In this document: positions 3,001 through 44,314 of the stretch, piece by piece
How positions within the stretch are numbered: the first letter of the stretch is position 1
How the letters are laid out: the number at the start of each line of letters is the position of its first letter
Origin: Candidatus Nomurabacteria bacterium
Lineage (GTDB): Bacteria; Patescibacteriota; Minisyncoccia; Phycocordibacterales; UBA9973
Length of the DNA stretch: 64,000 nucleotides
Direction of reading: 5' to 3'
Assembly: GCA_021413905.1 (NCBI GenBank)
Contig: JAIOPO010000005.1
Coordinates: 81,271 to 145,270, forward strand
Translations under genes and position numbers: made by a program
Notes under the pieces: generated by a model
Told to the model about the DNA's origin: nothing
Seen by the model: only the letters and a program-made list of their open reading frames with translations
Databases searched by the model: none

Positions 3001-3008
3001 ACATTCAT
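1..3008 (-). CDS. Large exported beta-strand-repeat surface protein (N-terminal >1000 aa; the C-terminus lies beyond the window start).
   Basis: ATG at 3008 on the minus strand followed by a hydrophobic signal peptide (MNVVFRKINYKFFAILVFAFCCFIFSAHSAAAA). The frame stays open to position 1, which is why it is absent from the ORF track. T/S/G/N-rich with recurring ~45-aa units (TQGT.AILTF.G..PTITTLTA.A.GNTV.Y). Confidence 0.7.
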   Translation of the reverse strand, partial: MNVVFRKINYKFFAILVFAFCCFIFSAHSAAAACTKYWIGGGTTTSWTASPTTNWAATSGGTIRVAAPGSTDDVCFDGVGTTANADSVVSSGITIQSLTFSGYTGSFSSSTNLINISLNSSVNMLVVDNNVQFGTTLFRVNGTVTATAGAHVSNVSLDFRPGVTVNTNGAVWGSFSSNNANPINLSSDLTTSGNFNATGNATFSGAKNVTIGGNLVIGAITFSIANATLTVTGTTTITGAGGNFTDSNVTGTNTFIGTVTVNSGAIFNISANSPCVFRGGLTNNTTSTFQSGSGSWTFDTNAQTISGTQSFTITNLTNNVTTGTGLTFSGTQPTVTTLTQGTNAILTFTGSSLPTITTLTASASGNTVVYSNSSAVTAMGISYVNLTNNITTSTGLTMTSSASATTVTQGTSAILTFSGTVPTITTLTATATGNTVQYTSTSSQTIKSATYYSLTKSGAGGTATLGGAVTVNGDLTISSGTLDVSVSNYQISLGGNWSNSGTFTARSGTVLLSGSVQQTISGTLTSSSAFYNLTITNNSGSDASDDERTGFTPSIIFSASMTSTGTYTITTASVRVQYLSGGTYTFNNINFNGQASGTKIFFRNSAVSGTWSMCVSGTQTAVSYVNVSRSDASCGNAISSDGTDYDGSNNTNWFGISISGTADGNNGATVKVAVNGTLSGTSTTISGGTWTLASVTAVSGDIVTVYVDGVSNANESTAITKQSSGAITGMVLNTGVLSIGSNQNTSLTITNLSSYTSSNDEDVMQSVSSSILSVQGTGNSYTNPTLSILSGNTLSVGTSEGIVTGKINIAGTLTSTGNASYTLDGTSGTLFTRTGTFTQATSTVTLSGNGDATINSGTTTFYNLTSSGTGVKSVSGSSALTFASSGTLTVSAGTFDPLTALVASGSNTLDVTGTIRVEASTFAGSYPSGFSTVNLNSGSTVDYYLSGTQTISSTITPYYNLTVSTGGTKTLGGNLTVSNVLTIGSGATLSGSSHTLTLSGTT

Positions 3009-3096
3009 ATGTAATAATTATACCATTTGAGAATTTAGATTCAAAGGAATATATAAAAAATATTATTGAAAATATTTTTTATAACACTAAGGTTTG

Positions 3097-3170
3097 TCCA
3101 CCCTCTTGGATTCGAACCAAGGACCCCAGAGGTATAAGCTCTGTGCTCTAACCAACTGAGCTAAGGGTGG
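3097..3170 (-). tRNA. tRNA with anticodon UAU (AUA-decoding tRNA-Ile type).
   Basis: Folds as a 74-nt cloverleaf on the minus strand: acceptor CCACCCT/AGGGTGG, U8, D-arm GCTC-AGTTGGTTA-GAGC with G18G19, anticodon arm CAGAG-CTTATAC-CTCTG (U33, anticodon TAT), T-arm CTTGG-TTCGAAT-CCAAG, discriminator A. No CCA is encoded. Confidence 0.7.
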
Positions 3171-5620: not shown

Positions 5621-6014
5621 TTTGTGGAACTGACGAGAATTGAACTCGTGTGCAGAAGGTTTTTGCAAAGAAGTCTACATATTTAGCGCATTTTTTTGTT
5701 TAAATTTTAAAATTCTTAAATGAACAAAATATTTTAAAATCGAGTTCTAAATTTTAGTGAAATATGCGAACAAATATTTCCTTATCCCGATAATATTATA
5801 CCCATTCTCATATATCGGAAGTCTATGAGATGGACACCAGTTTGGCTTACGCGAAAGCTGGAGCGAAAGCAAAATCATTCATACCGAAGTATGGTGATGC
5901 TTTCACTTTAGAAGCTAATTTTGCAATTAACATTTGAACTAAGTTTTACGAGATTACGTTCATTCTCGATATGCATCAATAGCAAAAGGCCCACTGTCTA
6001 TGCCTTGCAGTCCC
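5621..6014 (-). ncRNA. ssrA: tmRNA (ssrA, transfer-messenger RNA).
   Basis: The 5' GGGACUG pairs with the 3' CAGUUCC, giving the G3:U70 tRNA-Ala identity pair. The 3' T-arm is ACGAG-TTCAATT-CTCGT followed by a 7-nt acceptor strand and discriminator A. An internal tag reading frame ends ...GMNDFAFAPAFA-UAA. It lies immediately downstream of and co-oriented with smpB. Confidence 0.75.
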
Positions 6015-6026
6015 AATATTTTATTT

Positions 6027-6479
6027 TCAACGTCCTTTATATTCTCTACGAAGCTCTCGGTCTGTGTCGCGTTTTTTTGTAGTTTCACGTTTATCGTATT
6101 TCTTTTTTCCTTTAACCAAAGCTATTTTGACTTTGATTTTTCTACCTTTATTATACACTGCTATTGGTACTATAGTCAAGCTTTTGTTTTTTTCAGTTTC
6201 TACGAGTTCTATGATTTCTTTTTTCGTCAGTAATAATTTTTTATTTCTTAAAGGATCATAATCTTTAGGTGCATTTTTTACTTGATATGGCGGAATATTT
6301 GCATTAATTAAAAAAGCCTCCCCCCCACGGATAACAATAAAAGCCCCTTCGAGAGACATTTTGCCATCACGAACTGATTTTACCTCAGTCCCTAAAAGCT
6401 CAATGCCAGATTCGTAGTTTTCCAAAATCTCATAATCAAAAAGCACTTTTCTATTTTCAGCATAATTTGCCATACACAC
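6027..6479 (-). CDS. smpB: SsrA-binding protein SmpB.
   Basis: The protein starting MANYAEN...GTEVKSVR is typical SmpB and it is adjacent to the tmRNA. The true start is probably the second or third Met. Confidence 0.9.
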   Translation of the reverse strand: MCMANYAENRKVLFDYEILENYESGIELLGTEVKSVRDGKMSLEGAFIVIRGGEAFLINANIPPYQVKNAPKDYDPLRNKKLLLTKKEIIELVETEKNKSLTIVPIAVYNKGRKIKVKIALVKGKKKYDKRETTKKRDTDRELRREYKGR

Positions 6480-19083: not shown

Positions 19084-19698
19084 TTATTCAACTAATTTCA
19101 AAGCTTTGATAATATCTTTATGGACATCTTCGACTGACTGTTCGCCATTTATTGAAAAAATTTCATAATTATTTTTATTTTTAAAATAATTCATTGAAGG
19201 CACCACATTGTTCACATATTCATCAAATCTTTTTTCCAAACCTTCTTTTGTATCATCATTCCTGCCACGCAACAAATTTCTTTTCATGGCTTCTTCACGT
19301 CCTACTTCAATATAAATAATTTTTATTTTATCTCTTTTAAAAAACTGCATAGTTGATTCAAAATTTTCAGACTGATCAAGAGTACGAGGATAGCCGTCAG
19401 CAATAAGATGTTTAGTATCGTCTAAATTAGAAATCAACATACTGTTGAAAATAGTATTTGTTAAAAAGTTAGGTTGAAGTTCACCACGAGACAAAGAATC
19501 TTTTATAAGATTTCCAACATAAGTTTCTGATGATATTAATTTCCTGTATTCATTACCCGGATAAACATAGACTACTTCTTTAGTATCTTTTGCTTTTAAT
19601 ACATCCATCAGAAGATTTATTTGAGTTCCCTTTCCGGAACCTACGATACCAAAAAATACGAAAGTTTCACTTTGCATAATAATTACAGAATACACCAA
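19084..19698 (-). CDS. adk: Adenylate kinase (short form).
   Basis: P-loop GIVGSGKGTQ and DGYPRT motif. Confidence 0.8.
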   Translation of the reverse strand: MVYSVIIMQSETFVFFGIVGSGKGTQINLLMDVLKAKDTKEVVYVYPGNEYRKLISSETYVGNLIKDSLSRGELQPNFLTNTIFNSMLISNLDDTKHLIADGYPRTLDQSENFESTMQFFKRDKIKIIYIEVGREEAMKRNLLRGRNDDTKEGLEKRFDEYVNNVVPSMNYFKNKNNYEIFSINGEQSVEDVHKDIIKALKLVE

Positions 19699-19703
19699 AA
19701 AGC

Positions 19704-20315
19704 TTGAATAATCAAGGTTTTTGTAATAGAATGAATCTTATAATGAAAAAACAAATTATTACTCTAGCTGGAGCTCCTGGTAGTGGAAAATCAAGTACAG
19801 CAGATAAATTGGCAAAAGAATTAAATTATCAACGTTTTTCTTCTGGTGATTTTATGAGAAAAATTGCTCTTGATATGAGTATATCGTTAAATGAATTATC
19901 TACTTTGGCCGAAACAGACACGAGTATAGATGAAAAAATAGACGCTGAAGTCCAAAAAGCAAGGGAGATGAATAATGCTGTTATTGACTCACGACTAGCA
20001 TATCATTGGATACCTGAATCATTCAAGGTATACCTTTCTTTACCTGCAAATATAGCCAAAGAAAGAATTTTAAGTAATTTGAAAACAAATAAATTACGAC
20101 AAGAAAGCGAAGGTATTTCAAATGTAGAAGAAATATATAAAAAAATAACTCACAGAATGGAAAGCGAGAAAAAAAGATACAAAGAATTATATAACATAGA
20201 TCATACAGACAAAAATAACTTTGATTTGGTTATAGATACAAATGAAAACAACCTAAATAAAGTCGTTGAAACAATACTAAAAGAATATGAAAATTGGCAA
20301 AACAAAAAAGACTAG
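19704..20315 (+). CDS. cmk: Cytidylate (CMP) kinase, short archaeal-like type.
   Basis: P-loop ITLAGAPGSGKSS. The real start is probably an internal Met (MNLIMKKQ...). On the opposite strand to its neighbours. Confidence 0.65.
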   Translation: MNNQGFCNRMNLIMKKQIITLAGAPGSGKSSTADKLAKELNYQRFSSGDFMRKIALDMSISLNELSTLAETDTSIDEKIDAEVQKAREMNNAVIDSRLAYHWIPESFKVYLSLPANIAKERILSNLKTNKLRQESEGISNVEEIYKKITHRMESEKKRYKELYNIDHTDKNNFDLVIDTNENNLNKVVETILKEYENWQNKKD

Positions 20316-21605: not shown

Positions 21606-21923
21606 CTATCTTATTTTTATTTTTCCTCCTTTCAACTTCATGTCTTTACGAATTTGAGAGAATTTTGTTCCAACACCTTTTTTAAAAGAATCACCAGCTT
21701 TTTCTTTATCAATAGTGATTGTTTTACGGAAAGATTTAAATCTATAACCACGATTTTTTGGCAACTTCTTGATAATATCACGAAGTTCCGGGCGACGCTT
21801 GTTACCAGCACGAGCTGTTTGACCCTTACCTCCACGACCGGAAGTTTTCGCGTGTTTACCACCGCGTCCTACGATGCGGTCTTTTTTATTTTTATGTAAT
21901 CTTTTTAAATTATTTATTTGCAT
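21606..21923 (-). CDS. rplO: 50S ribosomal protein L15 (short).
   Basis: Gly/Arg/Lys-rich L15 N-region (GRGGKHAKTSGRGGKGQTARAG). It directly follows rpsE with no L30 gene in between. Confidence 0.8.
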   Translation of the reverse strand: MQINNLKRLHKNKKDRIVGRGGKHAKTSGRGGKGQTARAGNKRRPELRDIIKKLPKNRGYRFKSFRKTITIDKEKAGDSFKKGVGTKFSQIRKDMKLKGGKIKIR

Positions 21924-21929
21924 AAAATT

Positions 21930-22526
21930 TTATGAATTAACTTTTTCTTGTTCTTTTCCAGCAATGACTACAGTTTCGGGTACAGCCTTTGTGTATTTTT
22001 TAGAAATAGATGACAATGCTTCCATCACAGCTTTTGCATTGTTTAATTTATTTTTACTACCTGACAATATCTTTCCTGTAACGTCTTTGATACCTGCTAA
22101 TTTTACAATGTCATGAATAACAGAACCGACAACCAATCCGCGTCCTTTATTTGGCATAAGTTTCACAGATGAACTGGAGAACTTTGCGGAAACTTCATGA
22201 GGTAAAGACATTGTTTTTGTCAAAGAAACTTTAACCATATTTTTCTTTGCATTTCTCAAAGCTTTGTTTATAGCCAAAGAAGTATCACCTGCTTTACCGA
22301 GACCAAGACCGATAGCTCCTTTTTTATCTCCCGCAATCAATGCGACAGAGAAAGAGAATCTGCGTCCTCCTGCAACAACACGAGTAACACGACGAATATC
22401 CAAAATCTTTTGATCAAATTCCGGCTTTGGTCTTTCAAAAGAAGAAGAACGACGTTCTGGTCTGCCTCCTCTTGCTCCTGCTCTAGGATTTGAATTTGTA
22501 TTATTTTGTGTTTTATCTTTATCCAT
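21930..22526 (-). CDS. rpsE: 30S ribosomal protein S5 with an N-terminal basic extension.
   Basis: S5 dsRBD and C-terminal domain sequence. Confidence 0.9.
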   Translation of the reverse strand: MDKDKTQNNTNSNPRAGARGGRPERRSSSFERPKPEFDQKILDIRRVTRVVAGGRRFSFSVALIAGDKKGAIGLGLGKAGDTSLAINKALRNAKKNMVKVSLTKTMSLPHEVSAKFSSSSVKLMPNKGRGLVVGSVIHDIVKLAGIKDVTGKILSGSKNKLNNAKAVMEALSSISKKYTKAVPETVVIAGKEQEKVNS

Positions 22527-22535
22527 ATATTTTAA

Positions 22536-22877
22536 TTAAAATTTCAAACCGGAAGCTCTTGCTTCATCAGCTACTAATTTAATACGGCCTGTATATTTGA
22601 AACCATTTCTATCAAAAACAACTGTATCCATTTTTTTAGAAATAGCCAATTCTGCAATCATCTTACCTACTTGTTTTGCTCTTTCTGATTTTGTACCTTT
22701 TGTAATTTTAACATCATTTGCTTGCATCAAAGTCTTGCCGACAGTATCATCGATAATTTGAGCATAGATAAATTTATTTGATCTAAAAACAGAAAGACGT
22801 GGGCGCTCTGTAGTACCTGAAATCTTTGATCTGATTTTTGCTTTTAATCTTGTTCTTTTTTCGTCTTTTTTAATCAT
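22536..22877 (-). CDS. rplR: 50S ribosomal protein L18.
   Basis: L18 sequence; position in the spc cluster. Confidence 0.9.
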   Translation of the reverse strand: MIKKDEKRTRLKAKIRSKISGTTERPRLSVFRSNKFIYAQIIDDTVGKTLMQANDVKITKGTKSERAKQVGKMIAELAISKKMDTVVFDRNGFKYTGRIKLVADEARASGLKF

Positions 22878-22895
22878 AAATTTATTTTAATTAAA

Positions 22896-23429
22896 CTATG
22901 CTGTTTTCTTACCTTGTTTTCTTCTGATAACTTCACCTTCATAACGCATACCTTTACCTTTATATGGTTCCGGTTTCTTTAATGCGCGAACACTTGCTGT
23001 AAATGAACCTACCAATTCTTTATCAATACCTGTGACTGTGATATTGTTTTTTTCAGCTGTTGCAGTAAGCCCTTCAGGAATTGCGACAATAACAGAATGA
23101 GAAAAACCAAGAGCTAAATGTAATTCTTTTCCTTTAACTTCTGATTTAAAACCAACTCCTTCTAAAATCAATTTCTTTACATATGGTGTTTGAACTCCAG
23201 CAATCATATTTTTTATATGTGAAGCATAAGTTCCCCATAGAGATTTTGAAAATTTGTCATTTCTTTTTATATTTAAAGTAATGATCTTATCAGCTATAGT
23301 GATAGTGATATCATCACGGAAAGTTTTTGTTAAAGTTCCTTTTGGACCTTTAACTGTCAAAATAGCATCATTCTTTATGACTTCTACTCCTGTCGGTATT
23401 ATTATTTCTTGTTTTCCTATTCTTGACAT
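22896..23429 (-). CDS. rplF: 50S ribosomal protein L6.
   Basis: L6 two-domain sequence; position in the cluster. Confidence 0.9.
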   Translation of the reverse strand: MSRIGKQEIIIPTGVEVIKNDAILTVKGPKGTLTKTFRDDITITIADKIITLNIKRNDKFSKSLWGTYASHIKNMIAGVQTPYVKKLILEGVGFKSEVKGKELHLALGFSHSVIVAIPEGLTATAEKNNITVTGIDKELVGSFTASVRALKKPEPYKGKGMRYEGEVIRRKQGKKTA

Positions 23430-23441
23430 ATATTTATTTGA

Positions 23442-23828
23442 CTACCAAATTTTAAATAAAGCTTCACCACCGACTTGTTCTTTGCGAGCTTGTTTACCGG
23501 ACATAATTCCTTTTGGTGTTGATAATACCAACAAACCTGAACCGTTGCGAACTGTGTGTATATCTTTCATTCCAAAATAAACTCTTTTTGATTGTTTTGA
23601 TACTCTTTCGACATCTGCTATTTTTGGTTTTTTGTCTACGTAAACCAAAGATACTTCCAATACAGGATGACCTTTTTTAGTCTTTTTTGAAAAATCTGAA
23701 ATATATCCTTCTTTCTTTAAACATTCAGCAATAGCATTTTTCATTTTTGAATACGGAAAAGAAGCTGTCTCATGTCCTGCAAGACTTGCATTCTTCATCA
23801 TTATTAACATGTTTGAAATTATATCCAT
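23442..23828 (-). CDS. rpsH: 30S ribosomal protein S8.
   Basis: S8 sequence; position in the cluster. Confidence 0.9.
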   Translation of the reverse strand: MDIISNMLIMMKNASLAGHETASFPYSKMKNAIAECLKKEGYISDFSKKTKKGHPVLEVSLVYVDKKPKIADVERVSKQSKRVYFGMKDIHTVRNGSGLLVLSTPKGIMSGKQARKEQVGGEALFKIW

Positions 23829-23842
23829 ATTTTTTTATTTAT

Positions 23843-24028
23843 TTACCAACTTGATTTTCTAATACCCGGAAGCATACCTTCGTTTGCCAATTCTCTGAAA
23901 CAAATACGACAAAGACCGAAATCTCTCATAAAGCCGTTACCGCGGCCACAACGAAAACATCGATTTTTTTGTCGACTTGAAAATTTTGGTGTCTTTTTTG
24001 ATCTTGCTACTACTGATGTTTTTGCCAT
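23843..24028 (-). CDS. rpsZ: 30S ribosomal protein S14, zinc-binding type Z.
   Basis: 61 aa with CxxC...CxxC (CFRCGRGNGF...CRICFREL). Confidence 0.9.
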   Translation of the reverse strand: MAKTSVVARSKKTPKFSSRQKNRCFRCGRGNGFMRDFGLCRICFRELANEGMLPGIRKSSW

Positions 24029-24152
24029 ATAAATTTAATTGGGAGTGCTCTGTTAATATCACATTTCTTTTCTTATTTCTTCAAAAATACATATGTATCC
24101 TGAAAAGATAAGGAGAAAAACGGATTAATCAAAACCATATTCCCTTACTCCC

Positions 24153-24183
24153 TATACTAGCAGATTGCCCTAAAATAGTCAAA
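24153..24183 (-). promoter_or_regulatory. Sigma70-like promoter with extended -10 (minus strand: TTGACT-N17-TGC-TAGTAT), upstream of rpsZ; family P2.
   Basis: Conserved block aatctgcTAGTATAG shared with copies at 28475 and 32806. Confidence 0.55.
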
Positions 24184-24206
24184 TAAAAAATCTCCATGTA
24201 AGTTTC

Positions 24207-24788
24207 CTAAACATGACGATTTAAAAATTCATTTCTCATACCTGCAAATGCAACCGCAGCAGAAAAAATCTGACAAATAGCTATAAAAGGTGACCCTGTT
24301 TCAATCATCAAATAAGTTACTAATAAATGAGTAAATAAGTAACTAATCCAACCAATAATATTAACGGTCTTTTTATTAAGAGCCAAAAAAATAGTTCCGA
24401 CAAGTCCACCTAAGACAGAAAAAAATTGAATTAAAACTAAATTCTCATTTATTGCTTGAATTAAAAAGAAAATACAAACAACTGTAGTAATAGTAAAAAT
24501 AACAATTTTAAAAATAAGATTCCATTTTTTTAAAACTTTATTTAAATTATGTTTTTTTACAGAACTTGAAACTAAATATCCGTAAATCATAATAAAAATT
24601 AAAGCTACATCATATACCACCATAATCCATAGATTACCCCTATCTTCTAACACCATTTGAAGATAAAAATATATCGTAATTGTTATGGTTCCTAAAATTC
24701 CAAGACTCCAACCAATCGTCTTCTTTTTAAAAACAAAATATTTGTTCAATAAAAGAAGCAATGCGGAAATAATTTGCAATGCTAGCAT
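24207..24788 (-). CDS. Polytopic membrane protein (about 6 TM) inserted between rplE and rpsZ.
   Basis: 193 aa, strongly hydrophobic; no ribosomal function expected at this position. Confidence 0.55.
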   Translation of the reverse strand: MLALQIISALLLLLNKYFVFKKKTIGWSLGILGTITITIYFYLQMVLEDRGNLWIMVVYDVALIFIMIYGYLVSSSVKKHNLNKVLKKWNLIFKIVIFTITTVVCIFFLIQAINENLVLIQFFSVLGGLVGTIFLALNKKTVNIIGWISYLFTHLLVTYLMIETGSPFIAICQIFSAAVAFAGMRNEFLNRHV

Positions 24789-24809
24789 TCTTTCAACTTT
24801 TTAATTTTA

Positions 24810-24900
24810 CCTACTCTTTAGTTTTTCGGCGAACACTAGTCGGGTTTCAATGAACCTTATCTGTGTATATGATAGCATATTGTTAATAAAAAGTCAAATA
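24810..24900 (-). repeat. Copy A of a ~90-bp repeated promoter-plus-leader element (family P1: TTGACT-N17-TGC-TATCAT on the minus strand, -35/-10 at 24869-24897).
   Basis: About 93% identical to 33183-33270. Both lie immediately upstream of a minus-strand gene start. Confidence 0.6.
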
Positions 24901-24944
24901 CAGCATAAAATCCCCTTTCGGGGATTTTATGGTAGAGTCAATTT

Positions 24945-25511
24945 TTATTTTTTCTTTTTAACTTCTTCTTTCTTGAAAGGAATTCCTAAAATTTCAAAAA
25001 ATGCAGTGCCTTCAGCTTTTGTTTTTGCAGTAGATACAAAAGTGATAGCCATACCGAAAACATCTTTAATATCTTCATCTGCTGTTTCCGGGAAAATAGT
25101 ATGTTCTTTGATACCCATTGAAAGATTACCGATATTGTCTACTCCACTGCGATTAATACCACGAAAGTCTTTTGTACGAGGAAGAGCGACGTTGATCAAT
25201 TTTTCAATAAAAGCAAACATTCTTTTTCCACGTAGAGTAACCACAACACCGACAGGGTCTCCTTGACGGATTTTAAAAGAAGCAATGGATTGCTTTGCTC
25301 CTTTTTTAGTTGGCTTTTGTCCAGTGATTTTCGCAAGACGATCAGCAATAGCGTCATTTTTATTTTTATCTTTTTTGACTGCAGTACCTGTGCCTACATT
25401 CAAAACAATCTTTTTTAATTTTGGTGCAGCCATTACATTCTTGTAACCAAAATTAGCTTTCATTAATTCAAAAGCTTTTTCTTCTTTTTCTTTTACAGTT
25501 AAATGTTTCAT
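24945..25511 (-). CDS. rplE: 50S ribosomal protein L5.
   Basis: L5 sequence. Confidence 0.9.
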   Translation of the reverse strand: MKHLTVKEKEEKAFELMKANFGYKNVMAAPKLKKIVLNVGTGTAVKKDKNKNDAIADRLAKITGQKPTKKGAKQSIASFKIRQGDPVGVVVTLRGKRMFAFIEKLINVALPRTKDFRGINRSGVDNIGNLSMGIKEHTIFPETADEDIKDVFGMAITFVSTAKTKAEGTAFFEILGIPFKKEEVKKKK

Positions 25512-25520
25512 ATATTTAAA

Positions 25521-25826
25521 TTAAATTTCTTGATTACTTTTTCTCGCGATACGGACCATTTTACCGCCAACTTCTTTTTTACCAATTCTTGAAGCCTTGC
25601 CTGTTTTTGGATCTGCAATCATAACATTTGAAGCATGTATAGGCATAGGAATATCTAGCATTTGACCTTTCTCACCAGACTTTCTAGGACGTTGATGTTT
25701 CTTCATCATATTCAAACCTTCAACAACCACTCTGTTTTTAGTTACCAAAACACGAGTAATTTTACCTTTTTTACCTTTGTCTTTTCCTGTTACCACTATT
25801 ACATTGTCTCCTTTTTTTAATTTCAT
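25521..25826 (-). CDS. rplX: 50S ribosomal protein L24.
   Basis: KOW-domain L24 sequence. Confidence 0.9.
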   Translation of the reverse strand: MKLKKGDNVIVVTGKDKGKKGKITRVLVTKNRVVVEGLNMMKKHQRPRKSGEKGQMLDIPMPIHASNVMIADPKTGKASRIGKKEVGGKMVRIARKSNQEI

Positions 25827-25840
25827 ATATTTTAAATTAA

Positions 25841-26212
25841 TTAAATTACTTCCGGTGCTAAAGAGATTATCTTTTGGAAACCTTTTTCAGCTAATTCTCT
25901 TGGCATTGGTCCGAATACACGTCCTGCTTTCGGATCTTTTTTTCCTTTTTCTAAAATAACAACAGCGTTATCATCAAAACGAATATATGAACCGTCCTTT
26001 CTGCGGTAAGCACTACGTGTGCGGACAACAACAGCTTGGTGGACATCTTTCTTTTTTATCGCTTTTCTTGGTGAAGCAACTTTTACAGAAATCATAACAA
26101 GCTCTCCGATAGATGCATATCTTTTGTGAGCACTACCTAAAACCTTGAACACTTTTCCTATTGTTCCTCCTCCATTATCTGTTATTTTTACCAATGTTTC
26201 TGTTTGTATCAT
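25841..26212 (-). CDS. rplN: 50S ribosomal protein L14.
   Basis: L14 sequence. Confidence 0.9.
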   Translation of the reverse strand: MIQTETLVKITDNGGGTIGKVFKVLGSAHKRYASIGELVMISVKVASPRKAIKKKDVHQAVVVRTRSAYRRKDGSYIRFDDNAVVILEKGKKDPKAGRVFGPMPRELAEKGFQKIISLAPEVI

Positions 26213-26218
26213 AAAATT

Positions 26219-26482
26219 TTATTTAACAACTTTAAATTTCTTATCTTTTGAAATAGGTCTTGTTTGTACTATTTCAACAGTATCCCCTACTTTATATTTA
26301 TTATTTTCATCATGTGCTTTAAATTTCTTATTCACTTGATAAAATTTTCCATATTTTGGGTGCTTAATAAGACGCGCAACTGAAACAACAACAGTCTTGT
26401 CCATCTTGTCTGACACGACCACTCCTTTTAGAGCGCCTTTCAGATTTTCTGTATTCTCTTGTATGTTGTCTTTGTTTTTCAT
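26219..26482 (-). CDS. rpsQ: 30S ribosomal protein S17.
   Basis: S17 OB-fold sequence ([14 protein letters not shown]). Confidence 0.9.
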
Positions 26483-26504
26483 AAATATATATTATTTGTT
26501 AAAA

Positions 26505-26933
26505 TTATTTCTTGTGAACTCTCGCTACGATTCTTGTCTTTAATGGAAGTTTTGTTCCGGCTTTTCTGAGGGCTTCGCGAGCAATAGCTTCATCTACTCC
26601 ATCAACTTCAAAAATTATGCGTCCAGGGAAAACTTCGAAACAATAACCTTGTGGATCTCCTTTTCCCTTACCCATGCCCACTTCTGCTGCTTTAGCTGTA
26701 TATGGTCTGTCTGGAAAAATTCTTATCCAGTATTTTCCGGCCTTTGTTAAAGCGCGAGACATAGCCTTACGAGCAGATTCAATTTGATTTGATTTAACAC
26801 GAGCTTGGCTTTCTGATTTCAAAGCGAAAGAACCGAAAGCTATTTTTGTGCCACGTGTATCGGCTGTCATAGCCTTTGGGTTCATACGCATTGTATGCCA
26901 CTTTCTAAATTTTACTTTTTTAGGTACCAACAT
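26505..26933 (-). CDS. rplP: 50S ribosomal protein L16.
   Basis: L16 sequence. Only 22 bp separate it from rpsQ, so there is no rpmC gene here. Confidence 0.9.
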   Translation of the reverse strand: MLVPKKVKFRKWHTMRMNPKAMTADTRGTKIAFGSFALKSESQARVKSNQIESARKAMSRALTKAGKYWIRIFPDRPYTAKAAEVGMGKGKGDPQGYCFEVFPGRIIFEVDGVDEAIAREALRKAGTKLPLKTRIVARVHKK

Positions 26934-26938
26934 ATAAT

Positions 26939-27619
26939 TTATTTATTTTCTTCTGTTTTCTTTTTTTCAGAAAAAATCTTACCACGATAAATCCAAACCT
27001 TTATGCCGACATCTCCATAAGGTAAGTGTGCTTTTTCTCTCTTGAAATCAATATCCGCGCGGAAAGTCTGAAGAGGGATACTACCTTTCTTAAGCTCTTC
27101 CGTACGAGCAATTTCAGCACCGCCCAATCTTCCTGAAAGCACAACTCTCGCTCCTTCTACTCCGCGAGCAGTCATAACTTTTTCAATAACTTGTTTGATA
27201 ACACGTCTGTATGGCATTCTCTTTTCCAATCCTTCAGCAATCATATAAGCTACAATAGCTGCATCAGCTTCTGGATTTGGAACTTCAATAATCTCCAACT
27301 TGAAATCTTCTGACTTAGGCAAATTTAATTTTGCCATTTTTTTCAAAATTTCTTCTTTTAATTTTGTAGCGCCTTCACCATTTCTGCCGATAATAAGACC
27401 TGGACGTGAAGTACGAATCATAAAACGTGTAGTTTTTTGACTTCTTTCTATTTCAATAGTTGAAATATACATACCACGCAATTTCTTTTCCAAATATTCA
27501 CGAATGAGCACATCACCCTTTAGATAATCACAGTATTTTTTAGGATCAGCAAACCAACGAGATTTCCAATCTCTTAATATTACCAATCTATGCGCATATG
27601 GGTGAACTATTTTTGACAT
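26939..27619 (-). CDS. rpsC: 30S ribosomal protein S3.
   Basis: S3 KH and C-terminal domain sequence. Confidence 0.9.
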   Translation of the reverse strand: MSKIVHPYAHRLVILRDWKSRWFADPKKYCDYLKGDVLIREYLEKKLRGMYISTIEIERSQKTTRFMIRTSRPGLIIGRNGEGATKLKEEILKKMAKLNLPKSEDFKLEIIEVPNPEADAAIVAYMIAEGLEKRMPYRRVIKQVIEKVMTARGVEGARVVLSGRLGGAEIARTEELKKGSIPLQTFRADIDFKREKAHLPYGDVGIKVWIYRGKIFSEKKKTEENK

Positions 27620-27623
27620 AAAA

Positions 27624-28070
27624 TTATTTTGTTACTTTTTCTTTTTTAGCTTTTACTGTTTTGACCTTTGCTATTGTTTTCTTTTCTGTTTTTTCAGACT
27701 TAACTGATTTTTCAACTTTTGTATTTTTTGTATTTTTTTCTTTTGATACTTTTTCAGCCAAAACCAAAGTAATGTGACTTGTTCTCTTGTTTATTTTGTG
27801 ACCTGTACCCATGGCTGCAGGCATCATTCTTTTCATGACTATACCCTTGTCTACCATTATTTCTTTAACAAAAAGATTTTCTTTTTCTGCGCCGATTTGT
27901 TTGGCATTTGCCACAGCTGAAAGTAAAAGTTTTTTTACAGGATCACTCGCGCGTTTTGCCAAAAAGTCTAATTGGACTAAAGCCTCAGAAACATTTTTGC
28001 CACGAATAAGACTCGCAACGAGGCGAACTTTTCTAGGTGATTGTCTGTAATTTTTTAAAAAGGCTTTCAT
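27624..28070 (-). CDS. rplV: 50S ribosomal protein L22 with a Lys-rich C-terminal extension.
   Basis: L22 sequence plus a KEKNTKNTKVEKSVKSEK... tail. Confidence 0.9.
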   Translation of the reverse strand: MKAFLKNYRQSPRKVRLVASLIRGKNVSEALVQLDFLAKRASDPVKKLLLSAVANAKQIGAEKENLFVKEIMVDKGIVMKRMMPAAMGTGHKINKRTSHITLVLAEKVSKEKNTKNTKVEKSVKSEKTEKKTIAKVKTVKAKKEKVTK

Positions 28071-28093
28071 GTTTTTTAATTAATTTATTTAAA

Positions 28094-28438
28094 TTATTTT
28101 TTCTTTGCATCAGTAGCTGCGGATGCGCTTTTTGCTGCTGTTATTTCAGCTTCTTTCTTTTTCTGTTCTAATTCTTTTTGCATTTTACCTCCGTGTTTAA
28201 TGAATTTCTTTGTAGGAGAAAATTCGCCTAGTCTGTGCCCTACCATGTCTTCTGTAACAAGAACTTCTACATGGACTTTTCCATTGTAAACACCAAAAGT
28301 AAAACCTACGAATTCCGGAGGAATCTGACAAGCTCTTTTCCATGTTTTAATCATTGGAGTTTGCAAAGGACTTTTGCCTTCTATTTTCTTTAGAAGTCTT
28401 TCGTCAACATTTATTCCTTTTTTGATTGATCTTGTCAT
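28094..28438 (-). CDS. rpsS: 30S ribosomal protein S19 with a C-terminal Lys/Ala-rich extension.
   Basis: S19 core starting MTRSIKKG. The longer ORF start at 28504 would overlap the promoter and terminator. Confidence 0.85.
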   Translation of the reverse strand: MTRSIKKGINVDERLLKKIEGKSPLQTPMIKTWKRACQIPPEFVGFTFGVYNGKVHVEVLVTEDMVGHRLGEFSPTKKFIKHGGKMQKELEQKKKEAEITAAKSASAATDAKKK

Positions 28439-28474
28439 ATTATTAAGCAAAAAGCTCGAAACGAGCTTGTCCAT

Positions 28475-28505
28475 ACATACTAGCAAATTCAAATAAAATG
28501 TCAAA
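28475..28505 (-). promoter_or_regulatory. Family P2 promoter (minus strand: TTGACA-N16-TGC-TAGTAT) driving rpsS.
   Basis: Shares the aat.tgcTAGTATG block with the rpsZ and tuf copies. Located right after the rplB terminator. Confidence 0.5.
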
Positions 28506-28557
28506 TTTATATATCTTTAAATATCTTATATTTAAAAACGTAATTTTTAATAAAATT

Positions 28558-28601
28558 TGAAAAAATAAAAACCTTGCATTTCTGCAAGGTTTTTATTTTT
28601 A
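28558..28601 (-). terminator. Intrinsic terminator immediately after the rplB stop (accttgca-gaaa-tgcaaggt 8-9 bp stem followed by UUUUUAUUUUUU on the minus strand).
   Basis: Read directly from the sequence. It lies inside the normally contiguous S10 operon. Confidence 0.6.
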
Positions 28602-29438
28602 TTTATTCTTTCCAGTTTTTCTGCGAGAGACGATAAATACATTTGAGTATTTCTTTGGAGTTCTTGTCTTGCGTCCTCCGGTAACTTTACCCCACATAGT
28701 CTTTGGGCGTTTTGTTCCGCGTCCTTGTCGGCCTTCACCTCCTCCGTATGGGTGATCCACAGGGTTCATGGCTGTACCACGAACTGTAGGACGAATACCT
28801 TTCCAACGAGAGCGTCCAGCTTTTCCGTAATTTTCCAAATGATGTTCTTCGTTTGAAACTGTGCCTACGCATGCCCAACAATTTTCATTTACTTTTCTGA
28901 TTTCAGAAGATGGCATTTTTATATTTGTATAACCATCAGCATTTGCCACAACTTGTGCGAAAATTCCAGCTGAACGTCCGATCTTTGATCCTCCACGAGG
29001 TTTTAATTCTATGTTGTAAACGAAAGTTCCAACAGGAATATTTTTCAAAGGAAGTCTGTTTGCTGTATCTACTTCGGCTTTTTCAGAGACGATAAATTTA
29101 TCTCCTACTTTTACAGACTTTGGCAAAACAACATATCTTTTTTCACCATCAGCATATACAGCGATACCGATAAAAGCTGAGCGGTTTGGGTCGTATTCAA
29201 CAGAAGCGATCTTTGCAGGAATATCTTTTTTGTCATACAAAAAATCAACATCACGATACAAACGCTTGTGCCCCGCGCCTTTATGACGAGTAGTGATACG
29301 GCCTTGATTATTTCTTCCAACAGCTCGGCGAAAACCGTGAGTCAATGACTTTGTAGGTTCTGTTTTTGTCAAAACACCACGATAAGTCACATTACTCATT
29401 TGTCTTCTTGATTTGGTTGTAGGTTTGTATGTTTTCAT
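28599..29438 (-). CDS. rplB: 50S ribosomal protein L2.
   Basis: L2 sequence. Confidence 0.9.
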   Translation of the reverse strand: MKTYKPTTKSRRQMSNVTYRGVLTKTEPTKSLTHGFRRAVGRNNQGRITTRHKGAGHKRLYRDVDFLYDKKDIPAKIASVEYDPNRSAFIGIAVYADGEKRYVVLPKSVKVGDKFIVSEKAEVDTANRLPLKNIPVGTFVYNIELKPRGGSKIGRSAGIFAQVVANADGYTNIKMPSSEIRKVNENCWACVGTVSNEEHHLENYGKAGRSRWKGIRPTVRGTAMNPVDHPYGGGEGRQGRGTKRPKTMWGKVTGGRKTRTPKKYSNVFIVSRRKTGKNK

Positions 29439-29447
29439 ATTAAAAAA

Positions 29448-29729
29448 TTAAATTATTTCTATCTTATCACCTTTTTTTAAATAAACTGAAGCTTTCTTTC
29501 CACCTTGTTTTACACCTTTTCTACCTTTTACAATAATTTCTTTTGCTTTTACTGTAGTAATATTTACTTTCAAAGGTTTGACTTTGTAAAGAGCAAAAAT
29601 TTCTTTCTTGATTTCAGTTTTATTTGCATTTGCTTCCACGTTGAAAGTGTAAACATTATGTTTTTCCGCCATGAAAGATGCTTTTTCTGTAACTCTTGGT
29701 TTTTTAATTAATTTCATTTTTGTTGTCAT
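29448..29729 (-). CDS. rplW: 50S ribosomal protein L23.
   Basis: L23 sequence. Confidence 0.9.
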   Translation of the reverse strand: MTTKMKLIKKPRVTEKASFMAEKHNVYTFNVEANANKTEIKKEIFALYKVKPLKVNITTVKAKEIIVKGRKGVKQGGKKASVYLKKGDKIEII

Positions 29730-29744
29730 ATATTTATTTAAAAA

Positions 29745-30404
29745 TTAACCGCGAGATTCTAAAAACTTTACAGATTCTGTCGGATTTTCTATTAAAAGAT
29801 ATTGGTGATTCAAAACATCGTATGGATTCAAATTCTTCAAGAAAACAATATCGAGTTGAGGTAAATTTCTGTAACTTTTTTCTGTTTTTTCACTGCGTCC
29901 AGATAGAGCAGTCAATACTTTTGGTTTCTTTGAAGATCCTAAAGTTTTTACACCTGTAGCTTTTGCCAAGTTCTTCATTACATCTACAGCTGTCTTTGTC
30001 TTTATGTCTGTAGGAGCCAATGAATCAACGAAAATTATTTCTCCATCTTTTAATTTTCTTGATAATACAGAGAAAAGAGCTTGAGCACGCATACTCTTTG
30101 TGATCTTTCTCTTGTAATTCTTTTCTGCAAGAGGACCATGTGTAACACCTCCGCCCACCCATATAGGTGAACGAGAAGATCCATGACGAGCACGTCCTGT
30201 ACCTTTTTGTTTCCAAGGCTTCTTACCTCCTCCGCGGACTTCACCACGTCCTTTTGTATCAGCAGTTCCAGCGCGCTTATTTGAACGCATGCCTTCTACC
30301 ACTTGATGCACAAGGTCTGATCTCCACTTTGCAGAAAAAACCTTTGCCGGTAGTGTGATACTTCCCGCTTCTGCTCCTTTTTGATTGTATATTTTTGCTT
30401 CCAT
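29745..30404 (-). CDS. rplD: 50S ribosomal protein L4.
   Basis: L4 sequence. Confidence 0.9.
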   Translation of the reverse strand: MEAKIYNQKGAEAGSITLPAKVFSAKWRSDLVHQVVEGMRSNKRAGTADTKGRGEVRGGGKKPWKQKGTGRARHGSSRSPIWVGGGVTHGPLAEKNYKRKITKSMRAQALFSVLSRKLKDGEIIFVDSLAPTDIKTKTAVDVMKNLAKATGVKTLGSSKKPKVLTALSGRSEKTEKSYRNLPQLDIVFLKNLNPYDVLNHQYLLIENPTESVKFLESRG

Positions 30405-30408
30405 ATTA

Positions 30409-31023
30409 TTATCTTGAAACTATTTCAATTAAAGTACCACGTTTTCCTGGTAATGCGCCCTTTATAAGCATAACGTTATTTTCTTTATCAACATAAACAA
30501 CTTTCAAGTTTTTGTAAGTTATCCTGTCAGATCCCATTCTACCTGCCATACGCATACCTTTTGGCACGTGTGTACGAAGACCTCCACCGATACTTCCCGG
30601 CTCTCTTTCAGAATGTTTTTGTCCGTGTGTCCTAGGTCCTCCGGCAAAACCGTGTCTCTTTACAACACCTTGAAAGCCTTTACCTTTTGAGATACCTGAA
30701 ACTTGCAATTTATCTCCAGCTTCAAAAGCTGAAACATCTATTACATCACCTTCTTTTACAGTAGTTGAATCAGTAGGCTTTAATCTAAATTCTTTTAAAG
30801 TTTTATAAAATCCTCCTTTCATTTGACCTTTAGGTCCTTTTTGGATTCTACTTTCTTTTTGATTTCCATATCCAACTTGCACAGCATTATAACCATCTTT
30901 TGTTTTTTCAAAAACACGAGTCACAGTTATTGGACCTGCTGAAATAATCGTTACTGGTATAACTACTCCTTCTTCAGAGAAATACTCTGTCATATTTTCT
31001 TTTGTTCCGAGAATAAATTTCAT
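30409..31023 (-). CDS. rplC: 50S ribosomal protein L3.
   Basis: L3 sequence. Confidence 0.9.
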   Translation of the reverse strand: MKFILGTKENMTEYFSEEGVVIPVTIISAGPITVTRVFEKTKDGYNAVQVGYGNQKESRIQKGPKGQMKGGFYKTLKEFRLKPTDSTTVKEGDVIDVSAFEAGDKLQVSGISKGKGFQGVVKRHGFAGGPRTHGQKHSEREPGSIGGGLRTHVPKGMRMAGRMGSDRITYKNLKVVYVDKENNVMLIKGALPGKRGTLIEIVSR

Positions 31024-31027
31024 AAAA

Positions 31028-31408
31028 TTATAACATTTTAACGTCTATATCAACACCTGATGGTAATGACAAATTTGTAAGAGCTTCTACTGTTTTTGCA
31101 TTTGGATTCAAAATATCAATCATTCTTTTGTGAACTCTCATTTCAAATTGTTCTCTAACATTTTTGTAAATGAAAGAAGCACGATTAACTGTGTATTTCT
31201 TGATTTCAGTCGGCAAAGGAACTGGTCCGATTATTTTTGCATCATAACGCATAGCAGTATCTATGATCTGTTTTACAGACGCATCGAGAATCTTGCTTTC
31301 ATAAGCACGAACTCTGATACGAAGCACTACCGTACCGTCTTCTTTTTTATCCTTTGCTTTTGGTTTGGATACTTTTGGCTTCTTTATTTTTGTTTCTGTT
31401 GTTGTCAT
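31028..31408 (-). CDS. rpsJ: 30S ribosomal protein S10 with an N-terminal Lys-rich extension.
   Basis: S10 sequence (RIRVRAYESKILD). Confidence 0.9.
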   Translation of the reverse strand: MTTTETKIKKPKVSKPKAKDKKEDGTVVLRIRVRAYESKILDASVKQIIDTAMRYDAKIIGPVPLPTEIKKYTVNRASFIYKNVREQFEMRVHKRMIDILNPNAKTVEALTNLSLPSGVDIDVKML

Positions 31409-31427
31409 GATTTTTTAATGTATTCCA

Positions 31428-31438
31428 GATGTCGGACA
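31428..31438. promoter_or_regulatory. Perfect 11-bp palindrome ATGTCgGACAT inside an 18-bp motif (atgtcNgacatatggaaa), in the 63-bp tuf-rpsJ spacer.
   Basis: A second copy sits at 33322-33332. A 1-nt centre excludes an RNA hairpin, so a protein-binding site is more likely. Confidence 0.4.
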
Positions 31439-31471
31439 TATGGAAACCATACGCCCGATATCTGTTTTGTG

Positions 31472-32668
31472 CTATGCAAGAATTTTTGTAACAACCCCCG
31501 CGCCCACAGTCTTACCTCCTTCACGGATAGCAAATCTTTGTGATTCTTCCAATGCAACTGGTGTAACCAACTTAACTGTAAATGTAACTGTGTCTCCAGG
31601 CATAACCATTTCTTTTCCTTCTGCTAATGTAACTTCACCAGTTACGTCTGTAGTACGGATGTAGAATTGTGGTTTGTAACCTTTGAAGAAAGGAGTGTGT
31701 CTTCCACCTTCTTCTTTTTTCAAAATGTAAACTTCACAAGTAAAGTTATCATGAGGAGTAACTGTTCCTGGTTTTGCTAAAACTTGTCCACGAGTAATGT
31801 CTTCTTTTTTAAGACCTCGGAGCAAGATACCAGCGTTGTCGCCAGCCATACCTTCTTGTAAATTTTTGTTGAACATTTCAATACCTGTAACTGTTGATTT
31901 TTGAGTTGCACGAATACCGACTATTTCAATATCTTCACCAACTTTTACTATACCTCTTTCGATTTTTCCTGTTACAACTGTTCCACGTCCTTCGATAGAG
32001 AAGATGTCTTCTACTGGCATAAGGAAAGGTTTTGCTGTATCTCGTTCAGGAACCGGGATATATGTATCAAGAGCGTTTGCAAGTTCAAGAATTTTCTTTG
32101 CCCATTCATCATCTGCTGATGTAGCTTCAAGACCTTTCAAAGCTGATCCACGGATAACTGGAGCATTTGCACCATCGAAACCTTGCTTTGTAAGCAATTC
32201 ACGGATTTCTTCTTCAACCATGTCAATCATATCTTTATCATCAACCATGTCACACTTGTTCAAGAATACGATGATTCTTGGAACACCAACTTGTTTTGCA
32301 AGTAAAACGTGTTCACGTGTTTGTGGCATAGCTCCGTCTGTAGCAGCAACAACCAAGATAGCGCCGTCCATTTGAGCAGCACCTGTGATCATGTTTTTAA
32401 TGTAGTCAGCGTGTCCTGGAGCATCAATGTGCGCGTAGTGACGAGCAGCTGTTTCGTATTCATTGTGAGAAATGTTAATAGTGATTCCACGAGCTCTTTC
32501 TTCAGGAGCATTGTCGATTTGACTAACATCTTTCATTCTAACAGTGTTACCTGAAAGGTTAAGACAGTTCAAAATAGCTGCTGTTAAAGTAGTCTTTCCA
32601 TGGTCAACGTGACCGATTGTGCCCACGTTTACGTGTGGCTTGTCTCTTTTAAATTCTTCTGCTGCCAT
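31472..32668 (-). CDS. tuf: Elongation factor Tu.
   Basis: GTP-binding motifs [14 protein letters not shown] and NKCD. Confidence 0.95.
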
Positions 32669-42281: not shown

Positions 42282-42611
42282 TTAAGGATCTAAATCCGTC
42301 TTTTCTCGTATAAAAATATCTTTACCATCAGGAGATTTAACTTTTTTATATTTTCTATTTTTATTTTTTTCTATTTTGTCTACCAATTCTTTTTCCAAAT
42401 CAAAACCTAAAATCTCAGACATTCCTAAAAGGAATATAGCAACATCTGCAAATTCTTCTGCTACCCCCTCTTGCCCTTTATTGAATTTAGAAAATGCTTC
42501 TGAAAGTTCTTCATGAGCGCGACAAAATTCAAGAGCCACATCAGTGGTATTAAAACCTTTTTCCAATTTATTTCGCATTATTTCTTTTTGCAATTCTTTC
42601 AAATTTACCAT
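42282..42611 (-). CDS. MazG-like nucleotide pyrophosphohydrolase domain protein.
   Basis: Small all-alpha protein with EE..E...EE..D metal-binding pattern (EELSEA...EEFADVAIFLL). Confidence 0.6.
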   Translation of the reverse strand: MVNLKELQKEIMRNKLEKGFNTTDVALEFCRAHEELSEAFSKFNKGQEGVAEEFADVAIFLLGMSEILGFDLEKELVDKIEKNKNRKYKKVKSPDGKDIFIREKTDLDP

Positions 42612-42615
42612 AAAA

Positions 42616-43122
42616 TTATTTTTGATTATTATATTTTTGTACTTCTTTGTTTAAAAGTTTAAATTTTATTCCGGCTTCTTTAAAAATCTCTTTGGTTCTT
42701 TTGCTTGCATGATAATCTTTTTTTGCAATCACTTTTTCAATACCAGCATTTATAATCATTTTAGCGCAAGCATAACAAGGTGTCATATTGCAATACAATG
42801 TGCCACCAAACAAAGCGTTGCCCACTCGAGCTGCATGCACAATTGCATTTTGTTCAGCATGCGCGGTGCGAATACAATGCATAGATTCTGTTCCATCTGC
42901 ATGAATAACAGTATGCATTTCGTGACCAATATCATCACAATGTTTTGTATTCACAGGAGAACCGGCATAACCAGTGGCTAAAATTCTATTATCTTTTACA
43001 ATAATACAACCTGTTTGACCACGATCACAGCTAGACCTTTTTGCAACAGTATCCATAATCTCAATAAAATATTCATCCCAAGATGGACGCTTGCTTTTCA
43101 AAGGCTTTTCTTGTTTCTTCAT
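42616..43122 (-). CDS. dCMP (deoxycytidylate) deaminase.
   Basis: Zinc motifs HAE and PCxxC (HAEQNAI...PCYACAKMI). The ORF-track start at 43194 adds a hydrophobic 24-aa leader; start is more likely MKKQEKPL... Confidence 0.8.
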   Translation of the reverse strand: MKKQEKPLKSKRPSWDEYFIEIMDTVAKRSSCDRGQTGCIIVKDNRILATGYAGSPVNTKHCDDIGHEMHTVIHADGTESMHCIRTAHAEQNAIVHAARVGNALFGGTLYCNMTPCYACAKMIINAGIEKVIAKKDYHASKRTKEIFKEAGIKFKLLNKEVQKYNNQK

Positions 43123-43197
43123 ATACAATAAATATACTACTAAAATTAAAAAAAGCCAGTCACACAGACTGGCTTTTAAACATTTCAAAAACATTAA

Positions 43198-43767
43198 TTA
43201 AAATAAATTTGGGATTTTTGTCTTAAAATTTTCCCAATTTATTTTTCGCTCTTCGGGAAGATGAGCATTGTAAGGATAATTTCTATCAAAAACAAAATGC
43301 TCAAACACTGGTGTTTTTTTACCCTTTATTTGTGGCTTGTCATCCACAAGGTAATCACACAGAATATGAGTCTTATCGTAAGTCAAAGTTAGTGAATGAG
43401 CAGCATCTGAACCAAAGTTATCCAAAAGGCATTCATATTTTTCTTTATAAGAATGTCCCGCATTTGGTCCCCTGTTTGGAGTAGAAACAAACATAACATG
43501 ATGATTTAACTCAATCAAATTTTTATAAATTTCTACTGCTCCAGGTATTAAAGGCAAATCCTTGTAAAATCCTGGACGATGCCAAATTGCATTAATTCTT
43601 GAACGATACTCTTCAGGATAATTGGAAGAAAAATCCCATTCAGTTTGTTTATCACGATGAAAAAAATCAAGATCGGGAAATTCTTTTTTGCATTCTTGCA
43701 TCAATTTTCCCACCCAATCAAAACATGTATCATCAAGGTCAAAACCAAGAGTCATATACTTACTCAT
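43198..43767 (-). CDS. HAD-superfamily 5'(3')-deoxyribonucleotidase-like (NT5C family) protein.
   Basis: N-terminal DxDxT motif (GFDLDDTCFDW). Confidence 0.55.
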   Translation of the reverse strand: MSKYMTLGFDLDDTCFDWVGKLMQECKKEFPDLDFFHRDKQTEWDFSSNYPEEYRSRINAIWHRPGFYKDLPLIPGAVEIYKNLIELNHHVMFVSTPNRGPNAGHSYKEKYECLLDNFGSDAAHSLTLTYDKTHILCDYLVDDKPQIKGKKTPVFEHFVFDRNYPYNAHLPEERKINWENFKTKIPNLF

Positions 43768-43835
43768 AAAAACCTCCTTTAAGATTGTTTAATTTTTCAA
43801 ATTCTACTTTCAGACTATCAATTTAAAAACAAAAA

Positions 43836-43875
43836 GTAAAGCACCCCATAGGCCTTGCCTATGGGGTGCTTTTGT
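43836..43875 (-). terminator. Strong intrinsic terminator right after rplK (12-bp stem gcaccccatagg-ccttg-cctatggggtgc).
   Basis: Seen directly in the sequence. Confidence 0.7.
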
Positions 43876-43891
43876 ATATATTTTAAAAAAT

Positions 43892-44314
43892 TTATTTAAC
43901 TTCTATACCCATAGATCTCGCGGAACCTGCAATAATAGCGACAGCGCCATCCATGTCTTTTGCATTTAAGTCAGTCATTTTCTTTGTTGCAATTTCTTCA
44001 GCTTGAGCGCGAGTTATTTTGCCCACTTTTGAAGAATTTGGTTTTCCGGAACCTTTTTCCACACCTGCCGCTTTCAATATCAAATCAGTAGCTGGAGAAG
44101 TCTTTACAACAAAATCATAAGTGCGGTCTTCATAAACAAAAACTTGCACACCCACCTTTTCACCCATCATTTTTGATGTAGCAGCGTTAAATTTAGTAAC
44201 GAAATCCCCTATGTTTATACCAGCTTGTCCCAATGCAGGTCCAAGAGGCGGAGCTGGAGTAGCTCTTCCACCCATAATTTGTAATTTAATTTTCTTTGTT
44301 ATCTTTTTTGCCAT
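43892..44314 (-). CDS. rplK: 50S ribosomal protein L11.
   Basis: L11 sequence ([14 protein letters not shown]). Confidence 0.9.

Follow-up and report, generated by a model that had tools for sequence, protein, structure and literature searches.

We examined the S10-spc ribosomal protein operon in a 64-kb stretch of DNA (the window) from Candidatus Nomurabacteria (Paceibacteria), an organism of the candidate phyla radiation (CPR). In this operon the gene rpmC, which encodes ribosomal protein uL29 (L29), is missing between rplP and rpsQ. We consider it highly probable that rpmC was genuinely deleted in one Nomurabacteria lineage, whose ribosomes would contain neither uL29 nor uL30. uL29 is nearly universal in cellular life. 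Beside uL23 at the edge of the polypeptide exit tunnel, it lies where trigger factor, the signal recognition particle (SRP) and the translocon dock.

Operon and rplP-rpsQ junction

The operon lies on the minus strand of the window, from about 31408 to 20333, with the gene order rpsJ-rplC-rplD-rplW-rplB-rpsS-rplV-rpsC-rplP-rpsQ-rplN-rplX-rplE-[pnuC-like]-rpsN-rpsH-rplF-rplR-rpsE-rplO-secY. The rpmC slot is built up as follows:

26505–26933, minus strand: rplP (uL16), 142 residues, full length, without C-terminal extension
26483–26504, minus strand: spacer in the rpmC (uL29) slot, 22 bp, coding strand TTTTAACAAATAATATATATTT
26219–26482, minus strand: rpsQ (uS17), 87 residues, intact, with a Lys/Asn/Glu-rich N-terminal leader of 16–19 residues

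The product of rplP matches the complete Pfam profile PF00252 (Ribosomal_L16, 1–132 of 132, E = 1.5e-41) as well as TIGR01164 (E = 1.3e-43) and has the same length as in L29-containing relatives. The rpsQ product matches PF00366 (Ribosomal_S17) over profile positions 1–68 of 68 (residues 20–87) and TIGR03635 with residues 17–86. The absence of rpmC between two intact neighbours is in line with a lineage-specific loss of uL29. In relatives, rpmC takes up about 190–240 bp of the slot, compared with the 22-bp spacer found here.

For L16, NCBI has an identical protein, MCE9585532.1 ('Candidatus Nomurabacteria bacterium', 214-kb contig). S17 is MCE9585531; since the two accessions are consecutive, NCBI annotated no gene between them. 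The nearest 120 homologues belong to Nomurabacteria, Paceibacterota or Minisyncoccia, which places the window in the CPR.

Pairwise DNA alignments with four related loci (L083, L087, L172 and L171) revealed a single deletion of about 200 bp spanning the entire L29 open reading frame (ORF). Its breakpoints are uncertain, as they fall in A/T-rich, low-complexity sequence. The spacer possibly retains the final two codons and the stop codon of the lost gene (AAC AAA TAA, compare AAT AAA TAA in L083); the richness in A and T makes this reading tentative.

The genome is metagenome-derived, and the junction could in principle have arisen in assembly or binning, or could represent a minority variant with the deletion in a population that really carries rpmC. 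A Logan assembly of SRR15633504 (L001, 6849 bp), however, is 100% identical to positions 24868–31716 of the window, junction included. Two independent assemblers thus arrived at the same sequence over 6.8 kb, even if both assemblies may stem from this one read set. Nor do assembly errors typically cut out some 200 bp cleanly with both neighbouring genes still in frame, and rplP-rpsQ adjacencies of the same kind recur in other Paceibacteria, in dozens of assemblies unrelated to this one. We therefore regard an artefact or minority variant as very unlikely.

The original prediction, made from the DNA letters, had given the spacing between rplP and rpsQ as 22 bp and had rpsE followed directly by rplO; its coordinates and spacings proved exact. 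Its statement that L29 and L30 are missing from their canonical slots was confirmed by the 22-bp spacer and by a second one of 6 bp in the rpmD slot (see below).

Search for a hidden or fused L29

We built a hidden Markov model (HMM) from 53 L29 proteins that related Paceibacteria encode between L16 and S17 and searched all stop-to-stop segments of at least 15 residues in the six frames of the entire 64-kb window. The best match had an E-value of 3.2 (about 5 bits), which is noise. The same HMM gave a match in every related locus with room for L29 and in none where L16 and S17 abut, so that its sensitivity is good for this clade. A phmmer search of the window with L29 and L30 of E. coli, B. 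subtilis and T. thermophilus (the L29 queries serving as positive controls on related loci) resulted in a best E-value of 1.3. The original prediction had allowed for a short rpmC ORF of less than 60 residues within 26219–26933; there is none at this place or elsewhere in the window. The six-frame HMM and phmmer searches rule out a hidden or short rpmC ORF in the window.

It had also been suggested that rpsQ or rplP might carry an L29-like extension. The result was negative: L16 and S17 have normal lengths and the leader of S17 is native to this protein. S17 belongs to the 30S subunit. In a first MAFFT alignment, the 5' end of the window S17 gene was set against the 5' end of the L29 gene of relatives, and the motif ENLKG in the S17 leader indeed resembles the N-termini of their L29 proteins. 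Because of this resemblance the first multiple alignment was misleading. S17 comprises 87 residues in the window and in the L29-containing loci L172 and L084, which is also the median for L29-containing relatives, and the leader pattern E.TE.LKG..LKGVVVS is common to the window and these relatives. In L172 the leader reads ELKGNILKGVVVS, and the longer stretch compared with the window is KEITELKGNILKGVVVS. Since L172 has L29 together with an S17 of the same length and the same leader pattern, the leader is native to S17 and a fusion is rejected, with the caveat that A-rich sequence aligns ambiguously. Across L172, L171, L083 and L087, pairwise alignments and a comparison of the proteins likewise speak against an in-frame L29-S17 fusion: the leader is native to S17 and equally long.

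In more general terms, the function of L29 could be kept in a fused extension, at the C-terminus of uL16 or the N-terminus of uS17, or in a highly divergent small ORF. A leader of 16–19 residues does precede the Pfam/TIGR domain of uS17 and contains ENLKG as in the L29 N-terminus of relatives. It is too short, however, for an L29 of about 60 residues with two helices, and the motif is native to S17, as judged by the L29-containing relatives. Together with a uL16 of 142 residues as in relatives and no L29 HMM signal in any frame of the window, this makes a retained L29 function of this kind extremely unlikely.

Distribution of L29 in related Paceibacteria

A scan of GTDB species representatives listed at least 80 loci with L16 identities of 65–92%; the window genome is not among them. 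L29 is present in the slot in all of the 34 closest listed loci, as an ORF of 59–79 residues in 32 of them and by HMM match in L017 and L032, for which no clean L29 ORF was extracted. For one relative, L29 was confirmed by NCBIfam TIGR00012. Seven further clusters of near-relative L16 proteins (88–92% identity; NCBI, ENA, JGI and Logan; P0002, P0003, P0004, P0005, P0008, P0013 and P0019) all have a PF00831 L29 between L16 and S17, as does locus L003 among the 34 GTDB loci. In a neighbour-joining tree of S3, L16, S17 and L14, which is rough and unreliable in its deep branches, the window is the only one of about 45 tips in its clade to lack L29.

Because close relatives retain rpmC in the slot, the L29-less state is derived and not ancestral, and we assign the absence of L29, as read from these sequences, to an event on the terminal branch. 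No closer relatives sharing the deletion were found among the L16 clusters at 88–92% identity or in 80 loci from JGI metagenomes, and the exact 40-mer across the junction had no match in JGI metagenomes. The closest relatives are about 79–84% identical over 14–20 operon proteins; the loss of rpmC therefore post-dates a divergence of roughly genus level.

Farther away in the class the picture is different. Among the 80 listed GTDB Paceibacteria species loci, 25 are without L29 in the slot, with gaps between L16 and S17 from −5 to 98 nt. On the tree they form one coherent clade of 16–17 species and about six isolated tips or small groups. Including the window, L29 thus appears to have been lost roughly eight times independently within Paceibacteria. 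This count, derived from sequence comparison, is approximate because of the unreliable deep branches. In the separate sample of 80 JGI metagenome loci, L29 was present in 70, missing in 7 and uninformative in 3 (7 of 77 informative loci).

The original prediction had called the absence of L29 from this slot atypical. This holds for the window's own clade, where all near relatives examined have L29. It had not taken into account that about 30% of the Paceibacteria species sampled have no L29 in the slot and that its loss has already been published for CPR bacteria and tiny genomes.

One JGI Paceibacteria locus (L169) has an L16-S17 interval of 190 nt (positions about 545–735) with neither an ORF nor an L29 signal. 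The interval holds a long, imperfect inverted repeat, TAATTATTCTAATTGACCTAA ... TTAGGTCAATTAGAGCAATTAGAATAATT, possibly a structured element or what remains of an insertion at the former rpmC site.

Loss or relocation of rpmC

Instead of being lost, rpmC might have been relocated, i.e. a copy could lie beyond the 64-kb window and the canonical copy could have been deleted after duplication or transposition. The window is only part of a larger genome, and its operon shows a further rearrangement, a pnuC-like gene between rplE and rpsN. Against relocation, there is no L29 in the window itself. Wherever L29 was detected in related loci, it was in the canonical slot only, and none of the L29-less listed GTDB loci had an L29 HMM match within 10 kb on either side. 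Simple loss of L29 is also well documented (10.1101/2021.01.31.429008).

The protein databases point in the same direction. A search with the L29 of the nearest relative against 5.8 billion proteins yielded 41 L29 proteins. Ten of these came from NCBI: five with an accession, all from other series, and five without accession, as expected for unannotated assemblies. Among the 41 detectable homologues, none belongs to the MCE958xxxx series of this genome, which argues against an annotated, recognisable second copy of L29. Taken together, we consider relocation unlikely. The original prediction had left the choice between loss and relocation to a genome-wide search for L29 and L30. Neither was found in the 64-kb window, searched with an L29 HMM and with L29 and L30 queries from model organisms.

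Our preferred explanation remains a genuine deletion of rpmC, and we infer that the remainder of the genome contains no L29 either. Several points weigh against it. The sequence searched comprises 64 kb of a 214-kb contig, itself one of several in the genome, and a second rpmC could lie beyond it. The protein search relies on shared words of five residues and would overlook a copy that is strongly divergent or has no annotation. With nearest relatives only about 79–84% identical, 'recent' refers to the time since a split at about the genus level, and exact breakpoints cannot be given.

uL23 and possible compensation

uL23 is longer in L29-less loci than in the others (median 108 vs. 92 residues), because the proteins of the large L29-less clade are extended N-terminally by a Lys-rich segment. 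In this clade uL23 has 102–113 residues, with a Lys/Thr/Glu-rich extension of about 15–25 residues (loci L038, L039, L048, L051, L054, L056, L058, L060, L064–L066, L069 and L074), compared with 89–94 residues in the Nomurabacteria clade. The uL23 of L050 (86 residues) is without N-terminal extension. Several L29-containing lineages also carry such extensions, and the uL23 of the window (93 residues) has none. We found no clean correlation that would indicate compensation for L29 in the neighbouring exit-tunnel proteins. A link between the uL23 extension and the loss of L29 is unproven, because similar extensions occur in L29-containing lineages.

The L30 slot and a truncated L15

The second gap in the operon is located between rpsE and rplO:

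21930–22526, minus strand: rpsE (uS5), 198 residues, with both S5 domains (Pfam PF00333 and PF03719)
21924–21929, minus strand: spacer in the rpmD (uL30) slot, 6 bp; non-CPR bacteria carry rpmD there
21606–21923, minus strand: rplO derivative (truncated uL15), 105 residues, N-terminal two thirds conserved, C-terminal domain missing or replaced

The lack of rpmD between rpsE and rplO agrees with the uL30-less ribosomes of the CPR. The absence of L30 had been described in the original prediction as a known hallmark of CPR bacteria, and this holds: the L30 queries of E. coli, B. subtilis and T. thermophilus matched nothing in the window and nothing in 81 related loci. Wherever S5 and L15 were both found in a related locus, the gap between their alignments was at most 154 nt, which leaves no room for rpmD.

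The 105-residue ORF matches TIGR01071 (rplO) only over profile positions 3–88 of 144, with an E-value of 8e-6 that is below the cutoff; about 83 N-terminal residues align. It has no Pfam match at E ≤ 0.01, and its NCBI name is 'hypothetical protein K8Q94_02790'. Residues 1–66 are 80% identical to the L15 of L084, which has the normal 145 residues, and then the two sequences diverge. The 105-residue form is also found in L082 and L087. By this comparison we assign the ORF as a C-terminally truncated uL15.

Neighbouring genes and other features of the window

A PnuC-like membrane protein of 193 residues (nicotinamide mononucleotide transporter family; 24207–24788, minus strand) sits between rplE and rpsN inside the spc operon. 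It matches PF04973 with an E-value of 1.9e-8, corresponds to NCBI entry MCE9585527.1 and is flanked by gaps at 24029–24206 and 24789–24944. A tblastn search detected this gene in none of the 80 listed loci of GTDB relatives. In L084, L085 and L086 the rplE-rpsN junction is occupied by other ORFs (96–142 residues, without Pfam match). Because different ORFs are present in these three loci, the junction looks like an insertion hotspot. Downstream of secY, an adenylate kinase (19084–19698, minus strand) and a cytidylate-kinase-like P-loop protein (19704–20315, plus strand) are encoded on opposite strands; L082 and L087 have a single opposite-strand kinase gene directly after secY, compared with two kinase genes in the window.

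Elsewhere in the window (42282–44314), rplK (43892–44314, minus strand) is preceded by secE and nusG and is not followed by rplA. The genes after rplK encode a 5'-nucleotidase (NT5C), a deoxycytidine monophosphate/cytidine deaminase and a MazG-like protein. The canonical slot, the place examined for it, thus lacks L1 as well, as reported for a Parcubacteria subgroup.

A transfer RNA (tRNA) gene for isoleucine with the anticodon UAU was found at 3096–3170 (minus strand; ARAGORN, Rfam tRNA 69 bits). In most bacteria AUA is decoded by a lysidine-modified CAU tRNA, and the UAU anticodon is uncommon. Within 5622–6479 (minus strand), a transfer-messenger RNA gene with the tag peptide AKLASKVKASPYFGMNDFAFAPAFA matches Rfam RF00023 with 113.9 bits; it directly follows, on the downstream side, an ORF of 150 residues at 6027–6479 that is probably smpB. 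At the left end of the window an ORF of at least 1005 residues (3–3017, minus strand) runs past the boundary. It has an N-terminal hydrophobic segment, is rich in Thr, Gly and Ser and probably encodes a large surface protein.

Relation to published losses of L29

Tsurumaki et al. 2022 (10.1101/2022.01.07.475337) described lineage-specific losses of L28, L29, L32 and L33 in the CPR. Some Peregrinibacteria lack L29 and L32, a result restated in reviews (PMC9698310, PMC10221324), and an L15 reduced in size by the loss of C-terminal sequence is described as well (10.1101/2022.01.07.475337). The Peregrinibacteria case resembles the window in that L30 is absent throughout the CPR, L29 is additionally missing in particular lineages and L15 is shortened. 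It differs in being based on complete genomes, whereas the window belongs to Nomurabacteria/Paceibacteria (Parcubacteria), with a loss at one tip among L29-keeping relatives and an absence seen in 64 kb. As regards uL30, its absence in all CPR bacteria is established (Brown et al. 2015, cited by 10.1101/2022.01.07.475337). The window does not differ from this: rpsE is directly followed by rplO, and neither the window nor the 81 related loci gave an L30 match.

L29 is also one of the surface, dispensable ribosomal proteins that are frequently lost from tiny genomes and that 'can be lost or deleted' (10.1101/2021.01.31.429008). According to the same study, rpmC is the sole missing ribosomal protein gene in Ca. 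Uzinura diaspidicola and Ca. Walczuchella monophlebidarum, and Ca. Fokinia solitaria is without L29 and L30. In these symbionts, as in the window, the peripheral uL29 (and uL30) was lost in the course of genome reduction and the rest of the S10-spc operon was kept. They are, however, endosymbionts of insects or ciliates that belong to Bacteroidota and Alphaproteobacteria and whose genomes are complete, whereas the window stems from an environmental CPR metagenome-assembled genome.

We found no paper naming Nomurabacteria or Paceibacteria in connection with a loss of L29, within an incomplete coverage of the literature. Laboratory deletion mutants of rpmC in E. coli and B. subtilis have reportedly been obtained by Shoji et al. 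in 2011 and Akanuma et al. in 2012. In such mutants, ribosomes without uL29 can support growth, which is the state we infer for the window. The mutants were engineered in fast-growing model bacteria, whereas the window would represent a natural fixation.

Proposed explanation and significance

Based on the junction and its relatives, we propose that a deletion of about 200 bp excised the entire rpmC gene from the S10-spc operon and left rplP and rpsQ intact, 22 bp apart. rpmD would be absent as in all CPR bacteria. The 50S subunits then most likely lack uL29 and uL30 and contain a uL15 truncated at its C-terminus, and the rim of the polypeptide exit would be formed by uL22, uL23, uL24 and ribosomal RNA only. 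The loss would be tolerated because uL29 is peripheral and dispensable. It would fit the reductive evolution of CPR ribosomes, and losses of this kind have occurred repeatedly in Paceibacteria.

The finding is a further example of a pattern published for the CPR and for reduced genomes and leaves that picture unchanged. Its added value is modest and lies in a loss that is tip-specific here and recurrent across Paceibacteria. In practical terms, uL29 is unreliable as a single-copy marker in Paceibacteria, where about 30% of the sampled species are without L29 in the operon. Such gaps affect completeness estimates as well as concatenated ribosomal-protein phylogenies that include L29.

For the biology of the group, a natural lineage without uL29 next to sister lineages with it offers a clean comparison for what uL29 is needed for. 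We see an even chance that the losses in Paceibacteria are indeed about eight separate events, one of them at the base of the 16–17-species clade. If this is true, the exit-tunnel protein ring would be unusually evolvable in this class, and the lineages, with losses that range naturally from recent to ancient, would allow one to ask what replaces the contacts of uL29 with trigger factor, SRP or the translocon. In the old L29-less clade, the Lys-rich extension at the N-terminus of uL23 is one candidate for such a replacement.

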